A stretch of 64,000 bases of DNA from Deltaproteobacteria bacterium (GCA_016234845.1 JACRNP010000030.1:1-64000); one strand, 5' to 3'; shown: positions 1-26,047, counted from the stretch's first letter. Notes: generated by a model from the sequence alone, not told the origin. A program made the numbers and translations.

Positions 1-359
1 CCTACGAGCGGATCGAGGAGGAGCTCCCGCTGGTCGTCAAGCGGGACGGGCGCCGCGAGCCGTTCGACCGGCAGAAGATCCTGAACGGGATCATGAAGGC
101 GTGCGAGAAGCGGTCCGTGAGCTACGCCACCATCGAACACCTCGTCGAATCCCTCGAAATGGAGTTCCAGGCGTCGGCCGAGAAGGAGATCTCCTCCATC
201 CGGATCGGCGAGCGGGTCATGGAGAAACTTCTCCAGGTGGACGACGTCGCCTATGTCCGGTTCGCCTCCGTGTACCGGCAGTTCAAGGACGTAAGCCAGT
301 TCGTCGAGGAGATCAAGACGCTGATCACCGAGCCCGGCGACCGCCGCGGCCAGAAGTGA
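1..359 (+). CDS. nrdR: Transcriptional repressor NrdR (5'-truncated by window edge; C-terminal ATP-cone part)
   Basis: Translation ...KRDGRREPFDRQKILNGIMKACEKRSVSYATIEHLVESLEMEFQ...VYRQFKDVSQFVEEIK is typical NrdR; stop overlaps ribD start (TGATG). Confidence 0.85.
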   Translation, partial: YERIEEELPLVVKRDGRREPFDRQKILNGIMKACEKRSVSYATIEHLVESLEMEFQASAEKEISSIRIGERVMEKLLQVDDVAYVRFASVYRQFKDVSQFVEEIKTLITEPGDRRGQK

Positions 360-1374
360 TGGCACGCCCCCCGTTTCCGCACCCCGGGTTCATGCGGGAG
401 GCGGTTCGGCTGGCGAGGAAGGGGCTCGGGCGGACCGCGCCGAATCCGGCCGTCGGGGCGGTGGTCGTGCGCGCGGGTCGGATCGTCGGAAAGGGGTACC
501 ACCGGGCGGCGGGGATGCCCCACGCCGAGGTCGTGGCGTTGCTCCAGGCGGGGAGCGCCGCCCGCGGGGCGGACCTGTACGTGACGCTCGAACCGTGCGA
601 CCACCACGGGCGCACCGGGCCGTGCACGGCGGCGAGGCCGGCGTCACGGTCCACGAAGGGCTCCTTCAGGCGGCGGCGGCGGAAATCACCCGCGGGTTCC
701 GCCGATGGGTCGTGTCCGGGGCCCCGTTCGTGACGCTGAAGCTCGCGATATCCCTCGACGGACAGATCGCCTCGGCCGCGGGCGACTCCCGATGGATCTC
801 GGGCGAGCCGGCGAGGCATCGCGTCCACCGGATGCGGTCGGAGGCGGACGCCGTGATGGTGGGGGGCGGCACGGCGCGGCGGGACGACCCGCGGTTGACC
901 GCCCGTTATCCGGGAAGCCGGCAGCCGAAACGGGTGGTGCTGACCTCCCGCCCCGCCGAACTGCTCCAGCGGCGCATGCTCCGGGAGGAGGGCGGCGAGG
1001 TGATCGTCGCCTGCCCGACCGGGATCGGGAAGCGCGACGTGGAGGCGCTCCGGTCGCTGGGAGCCCGCGTCCTCCCGTTGCCTTCGCGCCAGGGGAAGGT
1101 GCGGGCGCGCGATTTCCTCGCCGCGCTGGGCGCGGAAGGCGTCACCTCCCTGCTGGTCGAGGGGGGAGGCGGGATCGCGGGGTGGCTCGCGGAGGAGGGA
1201 GCGGTCGACCGGTACGTCGTGTACGTCGCGCCGCTCCTGCTGGGAGAGGGCGTCCGCGCGGTTTCCGGGTGGGCGGCGAAATCCCCCGCCGCGGGGAAAC
1301 GCCTCGTTTTCACCTCCGTCCGCCGCGTCGGGCCCGACATCGAGATCACGGCGGAACCGGCGGAGGGACGATAA
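359..1374 (+). pseudogene. ribD: Riboflavin biosynthesis protein RibD (deaminase + reductase), reading frame interrupted: deaminase domain in one frame (359..~640), reductase in the +2 frame (595..1374); ~26-28 residues missing at the junction
   Basis: Frame-2 ORF reads MREAVRLARKGLGRTAPNPAVGAVVV...HAEVVAL...YVTLEPCDHHGRTGPCTAA then runs into nonsense. Frame-1 ORF resumes at GEAGVTVHEGLL...VTLKLAISLDGQIA (reductase). The segment corresponding to ~LIxAGVxRVVxAxxDPNPxVAGxG is absent. Confidence 0.6.
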
Positions 1375-2012
1375 TGTTCACCGGCATCGTGGAGGACATC
1401 GGCACCGTGGAGTCGCTCTCGCCGCTCCGCGCGGGGACGGCGTTGACGGTCGCGACGGGCCTTCCCGTGGGGGATTTCGCCATCGGGGAATCGATCGCGG
1501 TGTCCGGGGTGTGCCTGACCGTGACGGCGAAGGGGCGGGGGACGTTCACCGCGGACGTCTCGAAGGAGACGCTGTCGAAGAGCACGCTCGGCGCCGTCCG
1601 ACCGGGGGCGAAGGTGAACCTGGAGCGGTCCCTCACCCTCTCGGGCCGCCTCGGCGGTCACATCGTCTACGGGCACGTGGACGGGACCGGCGTCCTTCGG
1701 GAGATCCGCCCCATCGGGGAAGCGCGGGTATTCCATCTGCAGGCCGATCCTTCTATAATGAAGTTCGTGGTTTACAAGGGGGCGGTGGCCGTGGACGGCG
1801 TAAGCCTCACGGTCAGCGCCGTCCGCCAGGACGGATTCGAACTGGCCCTCATCCCGCTCACGCTCGACCGGACGACCCTCGGGGGCGCGCGTCCCGGAGA
1901 CCGGGTCAACCTGGAAGTCGACATCGTGGGGAAGTACGTCCTGTCGCACTTGGAGAGACGCGGCGAGGGAGGGGTGACGCTCGATTTTCTGAAAAAACAC
2001 GGTTTTTCGTGA
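1374..2012 (+). CDS. ribE: Riboflavin synthase alpha subunit
   Basis: [12 protein letters not shown]...GVCLTV...VDGVSLTV duplicated lumazine-binding halves; ATG overlaps ribD stop (TAATG). Confidence 0.9.
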
Positions 2013-2031
2013 GGAAGGACGAGGTAGGCGG

Positions 2032-3237
<1,206 letters not shown>

Positions 3238-3248
3238 GAGGCTATAGT

Positions 3249-3710
3249 ATGGCGCGCGTCATCGAAGGGGATCTGCAGGGACAGGGGGTCAAGGTCGCGA
3301 TCGTCGTGTCGCGATTCAACAGCTTCATCACCGAGCGCCTGCAGGACGGCGCGCTCGACGCCCTGCGGCGGCACGGCGTGGACGAGAAGGGGATCACCGT
3401 GATCAAGGTCCCGGGGGCGTTCGAGCTCCCCCTGGCGGTTCGCAAGGTCGCCGGCCAGAAGGTCGACGCCGTGATCGCGCTCGGGGCGCTCATCCGCGGC
3501 GGAACCCCGCACTTCGACTACCTGAGCGCCGAGGTGACCAAGGGCGTCGCGCAGGCGATGCTCGACACGGGGGTCCCGGTCTCGTTCGGCGTGCTCACCA
3601 CCGACACGGTGGAACAGGCGATCGAGCGGGCGGGAACCAAGGCCGGGAACAAGGGCGCCGAAGCGGCGCAGTCCGCGCTGGAGATGGTCAGCCTGCTCCG
3701 GAAGATGTAG
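3249..3710 (+). CDS. ribH: 6,7-dimethyl-8-ribityllumazine synthase
   Basis: [31 protein letters not shown]...VPGAFELP; 153 aa. Confidence 0.92.
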
Positions 3711-3740
3711 CCCCGGCGCACCGGGAGGAACTGGAACGCC

Positions 3741-4157
3741 GTGCGCAGGGAGTCCCGGGAGAAGGTTTTCCAGACGTTGTTCATGATGGACGTCCTGGGG
3801 GTTGGCCCCGACGAGGCCATCCCCCTTTTCGCATTGGCGTCGGCCCCGCCGTCCGACCCGGACTATTACAGGGAAACGGTCCACGGGGCCTGGGAGCGCC
3901 GGGAAGAGGTCGACGCCCTCATCCGCGAGGCGGCGGAGAACTGGCGGATCGAACGGATGGCGCTCGTGGACCGGAACATCCTGCGGTTGGGAGCGTACGA
4001 GATCCTGCACGGCCGCGACATCCCGTTCGCCGTCGCGATCAACGAGGCGGTCGATCTGGGGAAGCGGTTCGGGGCGGAGGAGTCCGGCGCGTTCGTGAAC
4101 GGAATTCTCGACCGGATCTCCGAGATGGCGCGGAAAAAGACGGAGGGAGCGCGGTGA
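3741..4157 (+). CDS. nusB: Transcription antitermination factor NusB
   Basis: 138 aa; ALVDRNILRLGAYEIL...FVNGILDRI motifs; classical position after ribH. Confidence 0.88.
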   Translation: MRRESREKVFQTLFMMDVLGVGPDEAIPLFALASAPPSDPDYYRETVHGAWERREEVDALIREAAENWRIERMALVDRNILRLGAYEILHGRDIPFAVAINEAVDLGKRFGAEESGAFVNGILDRISEMARKKTEGAR

Positions 4158-6733
4158 AGTACAGTCCCCGGGACATCGAAGGGAAGTGGCAGAAGGTCTG
4201 GGACGAGGCGGGAGTCTCCCGCTGCCCGGACACCCTCTCCGCGCCGAAATACTACTGCCTCGAGATGTTCCCGTACCCGTCGGGCCGGATCCACATGGGA
4301 CACGTCCGGGTCTACACCATCGGCGACCTCCTCGCCCGCTTCAAGCGGATGCGGGGATTCCAGGTGCTCCACCCGATCGGGTGGGACGCCTTCGGCCTCC
4401 CCGCGGAGAACGCCGCGTTCCGCCACGGGACGCACCCCGCCAAGTGGACGTGGGAGAACATCGCCTTCATGCGGGAGCAACTGAAGCAGATGGGGATCTC
4501 CTACGACTGGGACCGCGAATTCGCCACCTGCTCCCCGGACTACTACCGCTGGGAGCAGCTCTTTTTCCTCTGGATGATGAAGGACGGGCTGGCGTACCGG
4601 AAGCGCGCCACCCTCAACTGGTGCGGAGAGTGCCAGACGGTCCTCGCGAACGAGCAGGTGAACCGCGACGGCACCTGCTTCATCCACGACCAGACCCCGG
4701 TGACCCAGAAGGAGCTCGAGCAGTGGTTCGTCGGGATCACGAAGTACGCCGACGAACTGCTCGAAGGGCACCGCGAGCTCGCCGGCGGGTGGCCGGAGAA
4801 TATCCTCGAGATGCAGCGGAACTGGATCGGCCGCAGCGAGGGGGCCGAGATCCGGTTCCCGCTGGCGGACGGAGGCGGGGACATCACGGTCTTCACGACC
4901 CGGCCCGACACGCTGTACGGCGCCACCTTCATGAGCATGGCGCCGGAGCACCCGATGGCGATGGAGTTCGCCCGGAAGGCCGGCCGCGAGAAGGAGGTCG
5001 CGGAGTTCGTCGACCGGGTGACCCGTCAGGACCGGATCGCGCGCACGAGCGAAGAGCTGGTCAAGGAAGGGGTGTTCACCGGCGGGTATTGCGTGAACCC
5101 GGTCACGGGGAACCGGATCCCGGTCTACGCCGCCAACTTCGTCCTCTACGAATACGGCACCGGAGCCGTCATGGCGGTCCCGGCGCACGACCAGCGCGAC
5201 TTCGAGTTCGCCCGGAAGTACGGACTCCCGGTGGAGGTGGTCGTCCAGCCAGAAGGGGGTGATCCGCTCGACCCCGCGACCATGGCGGCGGCCCACGAGG
5301 GGGATGGCCGACTGGTCCGCTCCGGCCCCTTCGGCGGGCTGTCGAGCGAGGACGGGAAGAAGGAGATCACGAAGCACCTCGAGGGGAAGGGACTCGGGCG
5401 CGGAAAGGTCCAGTTCCGCCTGAGGGACTGGGGCGTCAGCCGCCAGCGGTACTGGGGATGTCCCATCCCGGTGATCCACTGCGAGGCGTGCGGCGTGGTG
5501 CCGGTCCCGGAGAAGGATCTTCCCGTGGTCCTGCCGGAAGACCTCCCGTACACGCGGGAGCGCGGGAACCCGCTGGTAGCGGCGGAGGAGTGGTGCCGGG
5601 TCCCGTGTCCCTCGTGCGGCCGCCCCGCCCGGCGGGAGACCGACACGTTCGACACCTTCTTCGAGTCGAGCTGGTACTTCCTGCGGTACATCGACCCGAA
5701 GAACGACCGGGCGCCCCTCGATCCGGAGAAGATGCGCCGTTTCGCGCCGGTGGACCAGTACGTCGGCGGCGTCGAGCACGCGTGCATGCACCTGATCTAC
5801 GCGCGGTTCTTCCACAGGTTCCTTCGCGACAAGGGGCTCGCCCCCGGGAACGAGCCGTTCGCGCGCCTCCTGTCCCAGGGGATGGTGTGCATGCAGACGA
5901 ACGAATGTCCCAAGCACGGCTGGCGGTATCCCGAGGAGGTCGACGAGAAGGGAGCGTGCCGGCAGTGCGGCGAGAAGGTCGACGTCGGCCGCTCGATGAA
6001 GATGTCGAAGTCCAAGCGGAACGTCGTCGAACCGTCCACGCTGATCGAGCGATACGGGGCGGACACGGCCCGCGTGTTCATCCTCTTCGCCGCGCCGCCC
6101 GAGAAGGACCTCGACTGGAACGAGCAGGGGGTGGAGGGAGCGTACCGGTTCCTCGGGCGGGTGCACCGGCTGATCGCCCAGCGGGCGAAGGAGATCGCCG
6201 CCGCCCCGCGCGACCGGATCGAATCGGAGGAGGTCCGTCGTGTCCGCCAGGTGACCCACCGGACCCTCATCAAGGTGACCGGCGACGTGGAGGAGCGGTT
6301 CCACTTCAACACCGCGATCTCCGCCATCATGGAGATGGTCAACTTCCTCTACCTCGTGGACGACGACGCCTGGAAGGGCGGCCCCGTCTCCGCCGCGCTC
6401 GCGGAGTCGGTGGAGATCCTCCTCCACATGCTGTTCCCGTTCGCCCCGCACCTGTCCGAGGAGCTGTGGTCCCGCATCGGCGGCGATGGGCTTCTCTGCC
6501 GCAGGCCGTGGCCCGTTCCGGACGCGGAAGTCGCCCGGGAGGACCAGGTCGAGGTGGTCGTCCAGGTGAACGGGAAGGTGCGCTCCAGGATGGTCGTGGG
6601 CGCGGGCGCCGGGGAGGCGGAGGTCGGCGCGATCGCGATGGCCGATCCGCGGGTCCGGGAGTACACCTCCGGGAAGACCATACGGAAAACCGTCTATGTC
6701 CAAGGCAAGCTCTACAGCATCGTCGCCACATGA
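4154..6733 (+). CDS. leuS: Leucine--tRNA ligase
   Basis: 859 aa; YCLEMFPYPSGRIHMGHVR (HIGH) and KMSKS motifs; GTG start overlaps nusB stop (GTGA). Confidence 0.95.
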   Translation: MKYSPRDIEGKWQKVWDEAGVSRCPDTLSAPKYYCLEMFPYPSGRIHMGHVRVYTIGDLLARFKRMRGFQVLHPIGWDAFGLPAENAAFRHGTHPAKWTWENIAFMREQLKQMGISYDWDREFATCSPDYYRWEQLFFLWMMKDGLAYRKRATLNWCGECQTVLANEQVNRDGTCFIHDQTPVTQKELEQWFVGITKYADELLEGHRELAGGWPENILEMQRNWIGRSEGAEIRFPLADGGGDITVFTTRPDTLYGATFMSMAPEHPMAMEFARKAGREKEVAEFVDRVTRQDRIARTSEELVKEGVFTGGYCVNPVTGNRIPVYAANFVLYEYGTGAVMAVPAHDQRDFEFARKYGLPVEVVVQPEGGDPLDPATMAAAHEGDGRLVRSGPFGGLSSEDGKKEITKHLEGKGLGRGKVQFRLRDWGVSRQRYWGCPIPVIHCEACGVVPVPEKDLPVVLPEDLPYTRERGNPLVAAEEWCRVPCPSCGRPARRETDTFDTFFESSWYFLRYIDPKNDRAPLDPEKMRRFAPVDQYVGGVEHACMHLIYARFFHRFLRDKGLAPGNEPFARLLSQGMVCMQTNECPKHGWRYPEEVDEKGACRQCGEKVDVGRSMKMSKSKRNVVEPSTLIERYGADTARVFILFAAPPEKDLDWNEQGVEGAYRFLGRVHRLIAQRAKEIAAAPRDRIESEEVRRVRQVTHRTLIKVTGDVEERFHFNTAISAIMEMVNFLYLVDDDAWKGGPVSAALAESVEILLHMLFPFAPHLSEELWSRIGGDGLLCRRPWPVPDAEVAREDQVEVVVQVNGKVRSRMVVGAGAGEAEVGAIAMADPRVREYTSGKTIRKTVYVQGKLYSIVAT

Positions 6734-10050: not shown

Positions 10051-11961
10051 ATGGCCCGATGGTTTCCCAACCGGCCCCGGTCCTGCGCGTCGTTCGCAGC
10101 GCCGGTTCTCCTGTTCCTGCTCGTATCCGTTCCCTATCCGGCGGCTGCCGGCCGGTTCCCCGGCTACTCCGACGAGGTGCGGGCACAAGCGGAGACCGTT
10201 GTCGACGCGGCTCTTCCCGGAAAGGAGGAGACGCTCGAACGGGAGGTCCGGTCCCTGCGTCGGCTGATGTTCGACCACGGGATCCTGTCGATCAACGAAA
10301 TCCCGGACCGGATATTCGAGCGCGCCGCGCGCGAGGGGTGGAAACGCAGGGCCGGCAGCGTCCTGCGCCCGGTGACCCGCGTCGCCCCCTACTCGGTTCC
10401 CCTCTGGGCGTGGCTTCTCCGGGAGGACATCCCGGACCTGGCCCTCGACCGTGTATTGGAGGATTTCAGCGGGCTGGAAGGATCCCTTCGCCAGTTCGGT
10501 CCGGGGCTGCTCGGCTACGCCGCATGGCTGCTTCTTTTCTTCAGCGCGTCGGCGTGCTGGTTCGCGGTCTGGTCGTCGATCTCCCTGTTCCTGCGCGCCC
10601 GCCCCTCCCTCGCTTCCGACATCTCCAGGATCTTCTCGAGGTTTCCGCGGCCCGACGCATGGGCTTCCGCCGCGACGCTCTGCTGTTTCGTCGCCCCTCT
10701 CGTATCCGGGGCAGGGCTTGCGGTGGCGGCGGTGTTCTGGATCATGCTCTCCGCGGCGTACCTGCGCAGGAGGGAGCTGGTGATCGCGTCGGTGACGATC
10801 ATCCTCCTGTCCGGCGTGTACGTCGCCGGCGGCCTGTTCCGATCGATCTCGGGGGTTTCCGGAGAGGCGGGGCGGGGAGGATGGCTTGGAGTCGAGGGAT
10901 ACGCCCCCGCAGCGTGGCCGGAATCGAATCCATCGCCGGACAATCCGTTTTCCGGCCCCGGGTGGGAGGCGATGATCGGATACTCGCGGGCCCGGGCCGA
11001 GATGCAGTCGGGAAACCCTTCGCAGGCGGAGGCGATGTGGACGAATCTGCTCCCGATGGGCGGCGACCTGCCGGGGGTGTACAACAACCGCGGGATCGTC
11101 CGCGCCCGGCTCGGTAGAACCGAGGAGGCGCTGGCCGACTTCGAGGCCGCCATAACGTTCACCCCCGGGGGGGGGCCGGCGCACTGGAACGCCTACCAGT
11201 TGTACCTGCGGGAGTTCCGCCTGGAGCAGGCGGGGAAGATACAGGCGGCCGCCTGGTCCAGCCTGCGGGAGATGAAACCGTTCGACTTCCGCGCGGAGGA
11301 GATGACCCGCGGAGAGCTCGTCGCCTCGCCCCTCCGCGTGGGGGACGTCTGGCGGAGCATGTTCGCGCACCGGGGCGCGTGGTTTTCGAGCGGGAGGGAG
11401 AATCCGTTCCTCCCGCGGTTCTTCACCCCGCTTCCGTCATCGTGGATCCCGCTGTTTCTCGCCGCGGGATTGTTCTGGGCGACCTTGTGGAAGCTTCTTT
11501 CGCGCAAGATCTGGATGCACAACACATGCCGCGCCTGCGGGAGCCGCTCCCTGATCGTCGGAAGCCGCGAAACCACCGACATCTGCAACGCGTGCCGTGC
11601 GCAGGTCGGGGCCGGGGTGCGTCCCGGGGAGGAGCGCGAGAGGAGGCTCTTCGGCATCGGGATGCACCGACGTTTCGTGAGGGCCTGCTCGGTCCTGGTC
11701 CCCGGGGCGGGGGCGCTGTGGGCGGGCAAGGAGCTCCGGGCGATGATCTTCGGGGGGATCCTCTCGACCCCATTGGGAGCGTTCACCGTCTCCATCGGGG
11801 CGGGGAGGATGAACCACGCGCTGATCACCGACATGCAGACCAGCGTAACCGTGGCCGCCGCCGCCGCGACGGTGATCGTATGGGTAATCGGTGCGGTGTG
11901 GGGTTGGCGCTCGTTCGACGCGCTACAGGGCAAGTTCAACGTCGCGATCGAGGGGAAGTGA
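10051..11961 (+). CDS. Hypothetical polytopic membrane protein with TPR-like segment and CxxC-X17-CxxC zinc-ribbon
   Basis: 636 aa; several hydrophobic helices; TPR-like NRGIVRARLGRTEEALADFEAAI; HNTCRACG...CNACRAQ. No recognisable enzyme motif. Confidence 0.6.
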   Translation: MARWFPNRPRSCASFAAPVLLFLLVSVPYPAAAGRFPGYSDEVRAQAETVVDAALPGKEETLEREVRSLRRLMFDHGILSINEIPDRIFERAAREGWKRRAGSVLRPVTRVAPYSVPLWAWLLREDIPDLALDRVLEDFSGLEGSLRQFGPGLLGYAAWLLLFFSASACWFAVWSSISLFLRARPSLASDISRIFSRFPRPDAWASAATLCCFVAPLVSGAGLAVAAVFWIMLSAAYLRRRELVIASVTIILLSGVYVAGGLFRSISGVSGEAGRGGWLGVEGYAPAAWPESNPSPDNPFSGPGWEAMIGYSRARAEMQSGNPSQAEAMWTNLLPMGGDLPGVYNNRGIVRARLGRTEEALADFEAAITFTPGGGPAHWNAYQLYLREFRLEQAGKIQAAAWSSLREMKPFDFRAEEMTRGELVASPLRVGDVWRSMFAHRGAWFSSGRENPFLPRFFTPLPSSWIPLFLAAGLFWATLWKLLSRKIWMHNTCRACGSRSLIVGSRETTDICNACRAQVGAGVRPGEERERRLFGIGMHRRFVRACSVLVPGAGALWAGKELRAMIFGGILSTPLGAFTVSIGAGRMNHALITDMQTSVTVAAAAATVIVWVIGAVWGWRSFDALQGKFNVAIEGK

Positions 11962-15322: not shown

Positions 15323-15801
15323 CCCGCCCGGCGGATGCATACCGGGTGTCGGTCCGCCAGGACCTTCGTCCCGCGGCGGTTTCGGGCCGACGGGTGAAGC
15401 GGTTCGCGATCCGCGCCCTTTCGATTCTTCCCGCCGCGGGCGCCGACCTGCGCATCCGGATCGTCGGCGACGTCGCCATCGCCCGGTGGAACCGGGAGTT
15501 CCTCGGGCGCGACCGGCCGACGAACGTGATCTCCTTCCCCGACGAGGAGCGAGTTCCCGCCCGCGGAGGCATCGTCTCCGGCGACATCCTCGTATCCGCC
15601 CCCACCTGCCTCGCGCAGACGGAAGGGTGGAGGGAGACCCCGGAGGCGCGCGTCTTCTTCTTCGTCCTCCACGGCATCCTCCACCTTGCCGGGTACGACC
15701 ACGAGCCGGGGGGTGCCGACGCCCGAAGGATGCGCCGGCGGGAGCTCCAGCTGTACCGCCGTGTCCTGGCGGAAGACCGCAGACAGTCGGGTGCTGCGTG
15801 A
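15319..15801 (+). CDS. ybeY: Endoribonuclease YbeY (rRNA maturation factor)
   Basis: Metal-binding motif HGILHLAGYDH; start assigned to TTG at 15319 (GTG ~15346 is an alternative). Confidence 0.85.
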   Translation: MTRPADAYRVSVRQDLRPAAVSGRRVKRFAIRALSILPAAGADLRIRIVGDVAIARWNREFLGRDRPTNVISFPDEERVPARGGIVSGDILVSAPTCLAQTEGWRETPEARVFFFVLHGILHLAGYDHEPGGADARRMRRRELQLYRRVLAEDRRQSGAA

Positions 15802-15856
15802 TTGTCCGGTGCTCGGGCTCGCCCTATGCACAGAGCGCACGTGATATCGATGCAGG

Positions 15857-17431
15857 GTGAGCGATTGCATGGGTAGAATGCGGACGCTGCTCGCCGGCGG
15901 GCTGTTCGTCGCCGCGTACGTTCTCGGGACGCCGGGGTACGACGTGCCGGGGCTGCCGCTGCTGTGCATGGCGCCGTTTCTGGCGGTTGCCTCCGGCGCC
16001 GCATCGGTTCGGGCCGCCGCCTGGAGGGGATGGATCGCCGGGACCGCCGCGAGCGTCCCGCTCTACTACTGGATCGCGTACACGGTCGCCGTGGAGGGGA
16101 AGCTCGGGTGGCCCCTCGGCGCCCTCGCGGCTTTCCTCGTGTCCGCCTACATCGGCGCGTACTTTTCGGTCGCCGCCGCTGCCGCCCGGCGACTGGAGGA
16201 CCGCTTCGGAGAGCGCGGGCTGTGGGTGTTTCCGCTCGCGTGGACGGCGCTGGAGCTCGCGCGCACGTACCTTTTCACGGGATTTCCATGGATGCTCCTG
16301 GGGTACGCGCTCGCGGGAAGCCCGCCGTTTCGCCAGGCGGCGGACCTGGCCGGGGTTCTCGGCCTCTCGTTCCTCGCCTGCCTTTCGGGCACCGCCCTGT
16401 TCCTCGCCGGAAGACGGCTCTCCGCCGGCTCCGTACGCACCGCGGCGCTCGCGGTTCTGCCCGGGCTGGCCGTCGTCCTCTTTCTCGCCGGATACGGCCG
16501 CCTCGCCCTGGCGGATCGCGCGAAGGCGGGATCCGGCCGGGAGCCGCTCAAGGTCGCCATCGCGCAGGGCGGGATCGACCAGTCGGCCAAATGGGAGCCG
16601 GGGAACCAGGCGCGCACGCTGGACCTGTACGAGGAACTGACGGTCCGGGCGCGCGACGACGGGGCCCGGATCGTCGTGTGGCCGGAAACGGCGGCCCCCT
16701 TCTTCTACGGGTGGGAACGGGAGTTGACGCGCCGTCTCGACGGGATCGCCGCTCGCGTGGGGATCCCGCTCATCTTCGGGGCGCCGTGGTACGACCCGGC
16801 CGGCGGCGGGAAATATTACAACAGCGTCTTCCACATGGACGCGCGCGGGCTGGTCCTGGGACGATACGACAAGCGGCACCTCGTGCCGTTCGGCGAATAC
16901 ATCCCTCTCCGGACGATCCTCTTCTTCCTCCGCAAGCTGACGGTGGGGGACGAGGATTTCACCGCGGGGACGAGCTCCTCCCTGTTCCGGGTGGATGGCA
17001 CCCTGTTGTCGGCGTCGGTGTGCTACGAGGCGGTCTTCCCGGCGATCTCCCGGGAGGGGGTTCGGGACGGGGCGGGGTGGCTGGTGAACGTCACGAACGA
17101 CGCGTGGTTCGGCGACACGGTCGCGCCCCGGCAGCACCTGGCGATGGCCCGGCTGCGGTGCGTGGAGCTGCGGCGCCCGATGGTCCGCGCGGCCAACTCC
17201 GGCATCAGCGCCGTCGTGGACTCCGGCGGCGAAATCGTCGCGTCCGTCGGGCTTTTCCGCCGCGGTGTCGTCGTCGCGGAGGTCGCGCCGGGGATTGGGG
17301 AGACCCTGTACGCAAAAACTGGGGAAATATTTGGGTTTTCCTGTATTATAATCACCGTTTTGACGCTATTTTTCCCTATGAGAGGACCCCATGGCTTCCG
17401 GATTGCTGGTGGAAAAGACCGCGGCGCTTGA
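15857..17431 (+). CDS. lnt: Apolipoprotein N-acyltransferase
   Basis: 524 aa; N-terminal polytopic region plus C-terminal CN-hydrolase domain (VWPETA...VCYE). The 3' end overlaps the prfB start by ~40 nt. Confidence 0.9.
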
Positions 17432-24229: not shown

Positions 24230-24784
24230 ATGCGGAAAACGGCGATTCCGGTGGTGCTGGCGCTGGCGGTGCTGTTCGCGGGAACGACCTTCGCGGAGGG
24301 GCTTCGCGTGGCGGTCATCGACGTGAACAGGATCCTGAACGAGTCGGAGGCCGGCCTTGCGGCGAAGAAGAAGATGGAGGCGCGCTACGAGGAGCTGAAG
24401 AAGAATCTCGAGGCCCGGCAGGACGAGGCGCGCAAGCTGAAGGACGAGCTCGACAAGCAGAAGGTGATGCTGGGGAAGGAGAAGCTGAAGGAGAAGGAGG
24501 ACGCGCTCCAGGCCAAGGTGAACGAGCTTCGGCAGCTGACCCAGGAAGGGGAGCGGGAGATGCAGGCGCGCCAGGGGGAGCTGACCCGGGACGTGCTGAA
24601 GCGGATCGAGGTGCAGGTCGACGCCGTGGTGAAGGCCGACAAGCTGGACCTCGTGCTGGAGCGGTCCAGCGGGGTGGTCCACTTCAACGATTCGATGGAC
24701 ATCACCGCCAAGGTCCTTGAGCTGGTGAACCGGAGCGACAAGGCGGCGGGGGCGAAAAAGGAGGGGGGCGGTGCCAAAAAGTAG
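24230..24784 (+). CDS. skp: Periplasmic chaperone Skp (OmpH)
   Basis: Signal peptide MRKTAIPVVLALAVLFAGTTFA plus K/E-rich coiled-coil; bamA-skp-lpxD order. Confidence 0.88.
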   Translation: MRKTAIPVVLALAVLFAGTTFAEGLRVAVIDVNRILNESEAGLAAKKKMEARYEELKKNLEARQDEARKLKDELDKQKVMLGKEKLKEKEDALQAKVNELRQLTQEGEREMQARQGELTRDVLKRIEVQVDAVVKADKLDLVLERSSGVVHFNDSMDITAKVLELVNRSDKAAGAKKEGGGAKK

Positions 24785-25587
24785 CCTTCCGCTCTCCGAG
24801 CTGGCCGCCCGGATCGGCGCGGTCCTGCGGGGGCCGGACTCCCCGGTGCGCGGGATCGCTCCGCTCGAGGAGGCGGGGCCGGGCCAGGTCGCGTTCCTGT
24901 CCAATCCCCGGTACGTCCGGCTGGCGCGGGAGACGAAGGCGTCCGCCCTGATCGTCCGGGAGCCGCTGGCCGGCGCCGCGTGCGCATTCCTCCTGTCTCC
25001 CAATCCGTACGATTCGTTCGCGCGCGCCCTGGAGATCTTCCACCCGCCGGTCCGCCCCGCGTCGGGCATCTCCCCGCAGGCGTGCGTCGACCCCGGGGCG
25101 TCCATCGGAAAGGACGTTTCCATCGGCCCGTTCGCCGTCGTCGAGAAGGGGGCGACGGTGGGAGACCGGACCTCCCTGTACGCGGGGGTATACGTCGGCA
25201 CGGGGGCCGCCGTCGGCGACGATTGCGTTCTGTACCCCCGCGTGACCCTGTACGAGGGGGTCCGCGTCGGGAACCGGGCGATCCTGCACGCCGGGTGCGT
25301 GATCGGCAGCGACGGGTTCGGCTTCGCGCCGTCCTCGAAGGGGTTCCGCAAGATCCCGCAGGGCGGGATTCGCGGGGCACATCGAGGTCGGCGACGGCGT
25401 GATGGTGGGGGCGCAGTCGGGGATCGCCGGGTCCGTCGACGCGTCGGAAACCCCGGCGTGGTCGGGGACCCCCGCGATGCCGCACAGGACCTGGCTGAAG
25501 ATGTCGGCGCTGCTGCCGAAGCTCCCGGAGCTGTTCCGCCGGGTGAGAAAGCTGGAAGAGAGAGAATCCGTGAAGGAGGAGGAGTGA
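24771..25587 (+). pseudogene. lpxD: UDP-3-O-acylglucosamine N-acyltransferase LpxD, internally deleted (~70 residues of the left-handed beta-helix missing) with frameshift; N-part in frame 0 (24771..~25375), C-part in +1 frame (..25587)
   Basis: Frame 0: ...HAGCVIGSDGFGFAPSSKGFRKIPQGGIRG then nonsense. +1 frame: GHIEVGDGVMVGAQSGIAGSVDASETPAWSG...LPELFRRVRKLEE (LpxD C-terminus). Total ~272 aa vs ~340 expected. Confidence 0.6.
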
Positions 25588-25588
25588 G

Positions 25589-26047
25589 GTGCTATCCGTC
25601 CAGGAGATCATGGAGCTGTTGCCGCACCGGTACCCGTTTCTCCTCGTGGACCGCATCGTCGAGGAGGAGCCCGGAAAACGGATCGTCGGGATCAAGAACG
25701 TGACGATCAACGAGGCGTTCTTCCAGGGACACTTCCCGGGGCACCCGATCATGCCCGGCGTCCTGGTGATCGAGGCGATCGCGCAGGCCGGCGGGATCCT
25801 CGCCCTCCGCGCGCTCGGGGGGAAGAAGCGGATCGCCTACTTCGCGGGGATCGACGGCTGCAAGTTCCGCCGTCCCGTGGTCCCCGGCGACCAGCTCCGG
25901 CTGGAAGTCACCGTCCTCGCCCACCGGGGCCCCGTGTGGAAGATGCACGGGGAAGCGACGGTCGACGGCGTCCTCGCGGCGAAGGGGGACGTGACCGCCA
26001 CCATCCCCGACGGGGTGGAGGTGCAGGAGCCGGGAGCGTCGATATGA
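25589..26047 (+). CDS. fabZ: 3-hydroxyacyl-[ACP] dehydratase FabZ
   Basis: LLPHRYPFLLVDRI...NEAFFQGHFPGHPIMPGVLVIEA hot-dog motifs. Confidence 0.93.
   Translation: MLSVQEIMELLPHRYPFLLVDRIVEEEPGKRIVGIKNVTINEAFFQGHFPGHPIMPGVLVIEAIAQAGGILALRALGGKKRIAYFAGIDGCKFRRPVVPGDQLRLEVTVLAHRGPVWKMHGEATVDGVLAAKGDVTATIPDGVEVQEPGASI

Follow-up and report, generated by a model that had tools for sequence, protein, structure and literature searches.

The window analysed here, a whole stretch of 64,000 nucleotides of a MAG contig, carries a ribD gene whose deaminase and reductase parts lie in different reading frames, with 88 nt absent between them in comparison with the closest intact relative. We put the probability that this gap arose through faulty local assembly or scaffolding of an uncurated MAG contig at roughly 0.68, a judgement based on the analogy with a comparable gap in lpxD and on signatures of selection. 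The ribD of the organism is most likely an ordinary, uninterrupted bifunctional deaminase/reductase gene of about 366 aa, and the evidence points to a data-quality problem rather than to biology.

Reading frames and size of the ribD gap

The gene order at the beginning of the window is nrdR-ribD-ribE-ribBA-ribH-nusB-leuS. The features that bear on ribD and its neighbours are as follows:

stop codon at 357-359: nrdR, the window beginning inside the gene
359-634, + strand: ribD deaminase part in its native frame, 92 codons, with the HAE and PCxxC zinc motifs, ending ...GPCTAA (632-634)
633-636, + strand: junction of the ribD gap, 88 nt absent relative to the intact relative, position ambiguous by 1-4 nt
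635-733, + strand: continuation of the deaminase reading past the junction, out of frame, up to TGA 731-733
634-1374, + strand: ribD linker and RibD_C reductase part, shifted +1 relative to the deaminase part, with its TAA (1372-1374) overlapping the ribE ATG
730-1374, + strand: open reading frame recorded as "RibD family protein" (MBI5904437.1, 214 aa), its GTG (730-732) overlapping the upstream TGA (731-733)
1374-2012, + strand: ribE (riboflavin synthase), intact
2032-3237, + strand: ribBA, intact
3249-3710, + strand: ribH, intact, with an identical protein in Logan contigs L085 and L086

The split in ribD is located at window 634/635. The start codon at 359 overlaps the nrdR stop, and the N-terminus that follows (MAAPPFPHPGFMR) is shared with RJP17817.1, the RibD of the closest intact relative. 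From this ATG the frame reads MARPPFPHPGFMREAV...HAE...LEPCDHHGRTGPCTAA and then continues out of frame as RPASRSTKGSFRRRRR... until the TGA at 731-733. The frame of the open reading frame 595-1374 reads ...GGEAGVTVHEGLLQ... and contains the whole reductase domain, in the order ...G-G-EAGVTVHEGLLQ..., the linker and a complete RibD_C domain. Both zinc-binding motifs of the deaminase, H-A-E and P-C-x-x-C, are present in 359-634 as PHAEV and EPCDHHGRTGPC.

Profile searches gave the same picture. Pfam located dCMP_cyt_deam_1 (PF00383, E=1.6e-16) in the first piece and RibD_C (PF01872, E=6.5e-48, profile positions 1-195 of 197) in the second. The NCBIfam profile TIGR00326 (eubact_ribD) was matched at positions 1-81 by the first piece and at positions 111-342 by the second, with 29 positions (82-110) missing. 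The two pieces scored 124.8 and 149.3 bits against TIGR00326, each below the family cutoff of 156 bits, and the reductase piece scored 155.5 bits against TIGR00227, above the cutoff of that family. A bifunctional RibD is a single uninterrupted open reading frame of about 355-380 aa (353-380 aa in the relatives). In the window it occupies two frames, with a complete C-terminal reductase and a deaminase core that lacks the counterpart of residues I82-R110.

These translations and profile matches bear out the sequence-only reading, which had described a deaminase frame from ATG 359 that keeps its zinc ligands and then turns into nonsense, and a reductase that resumes in another frame within 595-1374. 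The absence of a segment known from E. coli, also proposed there, was confirmed by alignment and corresponds to LIAAGVARVVASMQDPNPQVAGRGLYRLQ. Its estimate of a 3n+/-1 deletion of about 80 nt, with about 26-28 residues missing, holds for the loss itself, its position at the deaminase/reductase boundary and its type (3n+1), but the size is 88 nt, or about 29 residues by profile and alignment. Downstream, ribE, ribBA and ribH are intact, as that reading had stated, with 95.8-98.8% amino acid identity to the closest intact relative and no gaps.

Intact relatives and the missing segment

The closest intact relative (L001) is a 17.5-kb contig from JGI 3300007351 (Ga0104751_1004752), also present at NCBI, and its RibD is P0001/RJP17817.1. 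Window 1-635 aligns with L001 9610-10244 without gaps at 93.2% identity, and window 635-1360 aligns with L001 10332-11057, again without gaps, at 90.5%. Since the two gap-free alignments flank L001 10244/10332, the gap amounts to exactly 88 nt (29 codons plus 1 nt), present in L001 and absent from the window. At the protein level, the deaminase part is 92.4% and the reductase part 93.8% identical to the RibD of L001, with no gaps.

The removed residues are I82-R110 of P0001 (ILEAGIARVAYAVRDPNPKVRGGGAARLR). According to the alignment to 2B3Z and to E. coli RibD, they comprise the last part of the helix that follows PCxxC, then strand beta4, the D-P-N-P loop and helix alphaD. In the lost loop, D and N are the equivalents of Asp101 and Asn103 of BsRibG, two residues in contact with the hydroxyl groups of the substrate's ribose (PMC8256712). 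Because the missing segment holds the equivalents of these residues, a real deletion would leave the deaminase dead, as judged from the sequence.

As to whether sister genomes carry the intact sequence, a question raised by the sequence-only reading, the segment is kept in all 6 of the 6 aligned homologues. The best 120 RibD homologues listed are all full length or nearly so, and the gap is unique to this contig among all relatives found. Protein searches with stitched ribD queries returned nothing closer than P0001 (86% amino acid identity to the stitched query). A ribD from the same strain was not found by exact look-ups of the window's RibE, RibBA, NusB and the three possible broken ribD products, nor among the Logan assemblies. 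Only RibH is on record, in Logan L085/L086, and those contigs extend leftward to window 2514 and do not reach ribD. No other indexed assembly has a record of the frameshift products (124, 214, 259 and 310 aa). Among JGI metagenome contigs, neither the junction 36-mer nor the left-flank pattern had a match; the left-flank scan did not recover L001 either, which shows that the collection has gaps for this purpose. Among named relatives, the nearest are MAGs of Candidatus Deferrimicrobium (L019, about 83% nucleotide identity), a genus that belongs to the candidate phylum MBNT15 (PMC9386147).

That the arrangement works as it stands, through a programmed frameshift or as a split deaminase and reductase, is barely conceivable. 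Separate deaminase and reductase genes do occur in other lineages, and stop and start overlap in the GTGA at 730-733. However, 29 conserved residues of the cytidine-deaminase core are physically missing and not just out of frame, so that recoding could not restore ribD. Furthermore, no slippery site or Shine-Dalgarno sequence is found at 595, 622 or 730, and the architecture is seen in none of the best 120 homologues listed. A regulatory RNA was considered as well and rejected, since Rfam matched nothing in either the window or L001; no promoter- or terminator-like sites were detected in window 1-1500.

The junction between ribD and ribE was considered separately. L001 has 231 nt between the two genes (11069-11299) that are absent from the window. 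The spacer measures 0-2 nt in L002, L003, L005, L006 and L007, with a likewise tight stop/start overlap in the window (1372-1376), and 165-231 nt in L001, L004, L008 (3793-4005), L019 (268-434) and L047. A third lesion was therefore rejected at this site: the spacer is polymorphic in the clade (5 relatives without it, 5 with it), and its absence reflects this natural polymorphism. The spacers of L008 and L019 share long G/C-rich inverted repeats (GGGGGGTTCCACG...GTGGAAGCCCCCC) with no Rfam match, and may represent some small element, mobile or structured.

A second gap, in lpxD

Across the whole window, the codon-usage frame plot contains two same-strand frame switches inside genes, only those of ribD and lpxD. 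The lpxD features are as follows:

24771-25368, + strand: lpxD N-terminal part (NF002060 positions 3-204)
25362-25369, + strand: lpxD junction, 218 nt absent relative to L082, L083 and L084, with CAGG microhomology and an imperfect CGGGAT repeat
25369-25587, + strand: lpxD C-terminal part in the other frame (NF002060 positions 276-342)

Profile positions 205-275 of lpxD are missing and the gene is frameshifted. The lpxD lesion of similar kind mentioned in the sequence-only reading is thus real, with two frames by NF002060 coverage and a gap of 218 nt. The genes around it (skp, fabZ, lpxA, lpxB, msbA, kdtA, lpxK and lpxL) are intact, and lpxD is normally essential in Gram-negative bacteria.

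In contrast to ribD, near-identical sequences from other assemblies span the lpxD junction. Logan contig L084 (SRR12113396, 6,480 nt) matches the window at 99.5% identity on the left side of the junction and at 99.94% on the right side; for L082 (SRR12113394, 1,141 nt) the two values are 99.1% and 99.6%, respectively. Each encodes an intact LpxD of 344 aa; the 218-nt segment is identical in both and is the sole structural difference from the window. L083, which is 95-96% identical, also keeps the segment. Given that L082 and L084 differ from the window by 0.06-0.9% SNPs, they represent a sister haplotype and not the MAG's own reads.

No other gene-internal gap was found against L001 (window 1-5714) or against L083, a 21-kb syntenic relative (window 14764-35584), and the profile coverage of 30 further window proteins revealed no comparable internal gap. 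The partial profile matches among them (for example holA and the CinA N-terminal domain) look like weak similarity or single-domain architectures. In the case of the CinA-like gene, window 43487-44927 matches only the N-terminal domain (positions 2-238) of the 414-aa CinA profile, followed after 175 nt by a 169-aa open reading frame in another frame without an NCBIfam match; a naturally single-domain gene is the probable reading. At window 15782-15879, an intergenic indel of about 86 nt was observed relative to the 95%-identical L083, with the extra sequence in the window, between two genes.

Selection and divergence

The dN/dS values between the window and L001, calculated by the Nei-Gojobori method, were as follows:

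ribD deaminase part: 0.139
ribD reductase part: 0.115
nrdR: 0.061
ribE: 0.119
ribBA: 0.092
ribH: 0.100
nusB: 0.179
leuS: 0.089

Over 1,361 aligned nucleotides, ribD has a single gap and no extra stop or indel. This lone lesion, together with dN/dS values like those of the neighbours, indicates that purifying selection acted on ribD during practically the whole of its divergence. If it is real at all, the lesion must be extremely recent.

These values also bear on long-term relaxed selection, the other cause offered by the sequence-only reading, in which ribD would be a pseudogene (e.g. through riboflavin cross-feeding) in a genome whose erosion includes lpxD. Two broken biosynthetic genes in 64 kb are what such erosion has in its favour. 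We nevertheless consider it very improbable: the dN/dS of both ribD halves (0.115-0.139) falls within the 0.06-0.18 of the intact neighbours, a second ribD lesion is lacking, the remaining rib and lpx operon genes are intact, and the near-identical haplotype has an intact lpxD.

The divergence from L001 is uneven along the contig. Nucleotide identity is 88-95% over nrdR-ribD-ribE (window 1-1800) and 97-99% from ribBA to leuS (1800-5714). Correspondingly, dS is 0.30 in ribD, 0.18-0.21 in nrdR and ribE, and 0.07-0.09 from ribBA to leuS. The uneven dS marks the left 1.8 kb of the window as a strain-variable or recombinant tract, and is suggestive of either recombination or a consensus mixed from several strains at the contig end.

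Repeats at the junctions and the case for a recent deletion

The repeat search of the window around the ribD junction found none that is relevant. In this respect the statement of the sequence-only reading that no repeats explain the break is true for the window itself, but the intact L001 has a direct repeat of 7-10 nt, GCGGCGA(GGC), at the left edge of the segment and again 78 nt downstream as GCGGCGAGGC, so that the repeats flank 78 of the 88 missing nt. The microhomology at the junction is 1 nt relative to L001. More distant relatives read CTG CGC GAC GCC GGC at the right edge of the missing segment, and since they carry this CGC codon, the ancestor of the window may have had it too, which would give a junction microhomology of 3-4 nt, up to GCGA.

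Such repeats would fit a real and very recent 88-nt deletion, carried by the strain or part of the population and produced by replication slippage or microhomology. It would remove beta4, the D-P-N-P loop and alphaD and destroy the deaminase fold, and the cell would depend on riboflavin or 5-amino-6-ribitylaminouracil from outside, or on a second deaminase. A stand-alone reductase might arise by reinitiation at the GTGA at 730-733. In addition to the repeats in L001 and the plausible 3-4 nt microhomology if the ancestor had CTG CGC GAG, this explanation is favoured by the inactivating nature of the loss, by the position of the TGA/GTG overlap just upstream of an essentially complete RibD_C, by the existence of stand-alone reductases of about 220 aa (e.g. 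2AZN), and by the lack of any intact ribD found from the same strain. The microhomology of about 4 nt at both junctions (CAGG in lpxD, possible in ribD) is typical of genuine slippage deletion and is not obviously expected from a blind scaffold join; by rough estimate, chance alone would give at least 4 nt of microhomology in only about 3% of random junctions.

A real deletion is nonetheless rather unlikely in our view. Against it stand the single lesion in a gene whose dN/dS is not raised, the intact ribE, ribBA and ribH, and a lesion of the same type in the normally essential lpxD that is absent from contigs 99.1-99.9% identical. Moreover, two fresh inactivations among about 63 genes would imply about 100 genome-wide, yet other signs of decay are lacking. 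The 30 window proteins scanned against NCBIfam, a partial check, included no member of a riboflavin transporter family. In its more specific form, a real recent loss of the RibD deaminase in a groundwater relative of Candidatus Deferrimicrobium (MBNT15), with a reductase-only product made through the GTGA at 730-733, would be distinctly unlikely. If true, it would describe a fresh riboflavin-pathway auxotroph reliant on cross-feeding, possibly a sub-population that also carries the lpxD deletion.

Assembly error as the preferred explanation

A local assembly error would account for both gaps. In this proposal, the assembly graph breaks up over nrdR-ribD-ribE, a strain-variable stretch near a contig end; two pieces would have been joined there without the intervening 88 nt, and the same kind of join in lpxD would have lost 218 nt. 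Several observations favour this explanation. First, near-identical assemblies made independently from two other runs do not have the lpxD gap; this holds for lpxD only, the intact relative available for ribD being 90-93% identical. Second, two fresh frameshifting gaps occur in about 63 genes, one of them normally essential, with no other sign of decay. Third, ribD lies in a tract where assemblers struggle: it is about 0.4-2.2 kb from the contig end (the contig has 65,616 nt and the window 64,000), two other MAG contigs (L019 and L047) begin inside ribD at nearly the same codon (equivalent to window 1108-1117), and Logan contigs L085 and L086, assembled from different runs, share the same starting point in ribBA (window 2514). 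The sequence-only reading had likewise named assembly or consensus problems as a cause; the intact lpxD of L082, L083 and L084 and the count of two frame breaks in 64 kb make this the favoured one, with a recent real deletion as the lesser possibility.

Two more specific routes to such an error were considered. No shared k-mer of at least 20 nt able to explain a de Bruijn mis-join was found, which counts against an error, as does the lack of Ns in the window. Loss of coverage from extreme GC content or secondary structure was rejected, as the missing segments have a GC content of 0.69-0.73 and folding energies that resemble those of their flanks.

To judge by the style of its accession, the MAG of the window may belong to a northern-California groundwater study. 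The pipeline of that study used MEGAHIT followed by IDBA-UD scaffolding, with no error curation (PMC7906910). Local assembly errors, defined by the absence of perfect support from any read and by paired reads with anomalous insert sizes, have been documented in uncurated MAG scaffolds, where they corrupt protein-coding sequences (PMC7111523). The example genome given there has 13 local errors in 1.13 Mb, about 1 per 87 kb, so two lesions in 64 kb are unremarkable.

Database records and consequences

Both lesions are present in public protein records from a GenBank contig labelled "MAG: Deltaproteobacteria bacterium" (locus tags HZB86_). MBI5904437.1 ("MAG: RibD family protein", 214 aa) equals window 730-1374 exactly, and MBI5904460.1 ("MAG: hypothetical protein HZB86_02750", 310 aa) equals window 24771-25703 exactly, including about 110 out-of-frame residues. 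These exact matches mean that the ribD lesion is already public and annotated as if it were a reductase-only gene; MBI5904437.1 clusters with intact RibD sequences at the 90% protein level. Two misleading database entries have thus been produced. Read literally, the contig would point to an uncultured groundwater bacterium that is auxotrophic for riboflavin and defective in lipid A. The value of the present result lies mainly in caution: this MAG should not be used as evidence of either riboflavin auxotrophy or LPS loss. A genuine deletion would amount to an ordinary case of recent gene loss by short-repeat deletion.

Comparison with known systems

The ribD of the window shares with bifunctional RibD/RibG proteins (TIGR00326; 2B3Z of B. 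subtilis, 2G6V/2O7P of E. coli) the HAE and PCxxC motifs, the linker and the complete RibD_C, as well as the operon nrdR-ribD-ribE-ribBA-ribH-nusB, and is 86-94% identical to an intact relative. It differs in lacking positions 82-110 (beta4, the D-P-N-P loop and alphaD) and in having its domains in different frames. Stand-alone pyrimidine reductases, such as 2AZN of M. jannaschii (TIGR01508), resemble MBI5904437.1 (214 aa) in their full RibD_C and similar length. Unlike them, MBI5904437.1 is a fragment of a bifunctional gene, with the deaminase half still conserved upstream and no ribosome-binding site of its own.

Deletions at microhomologies or short repeats that make bacterial pseudogenes are alike in the loss of tens to hundreds of nucleotides, in GC-rich direct-repeat ends and in the resulting frameshift. 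Real pseudogenes, however, usually display other signs of relaxed constraint or are shared clone-wide, whereas here the signatures of selection are normal and lpxD is intact in the sister haplotype. The local assembly errors described by Chen, Anantharaman, Shaiber, Eren and Banfield (2020, Genome Res; PMC7111523) differ from the present case in that junction microhomology is not their described hallmark, and the window contains no Ns. The likeness to them lies in a short stretch of consensus that is missing or wrong in an otherwise good contig and corrupts a gene, at a rate on the order of one per 100 kb, tied to strain variation and scaffolding, and in the passage of such errors into public databases.
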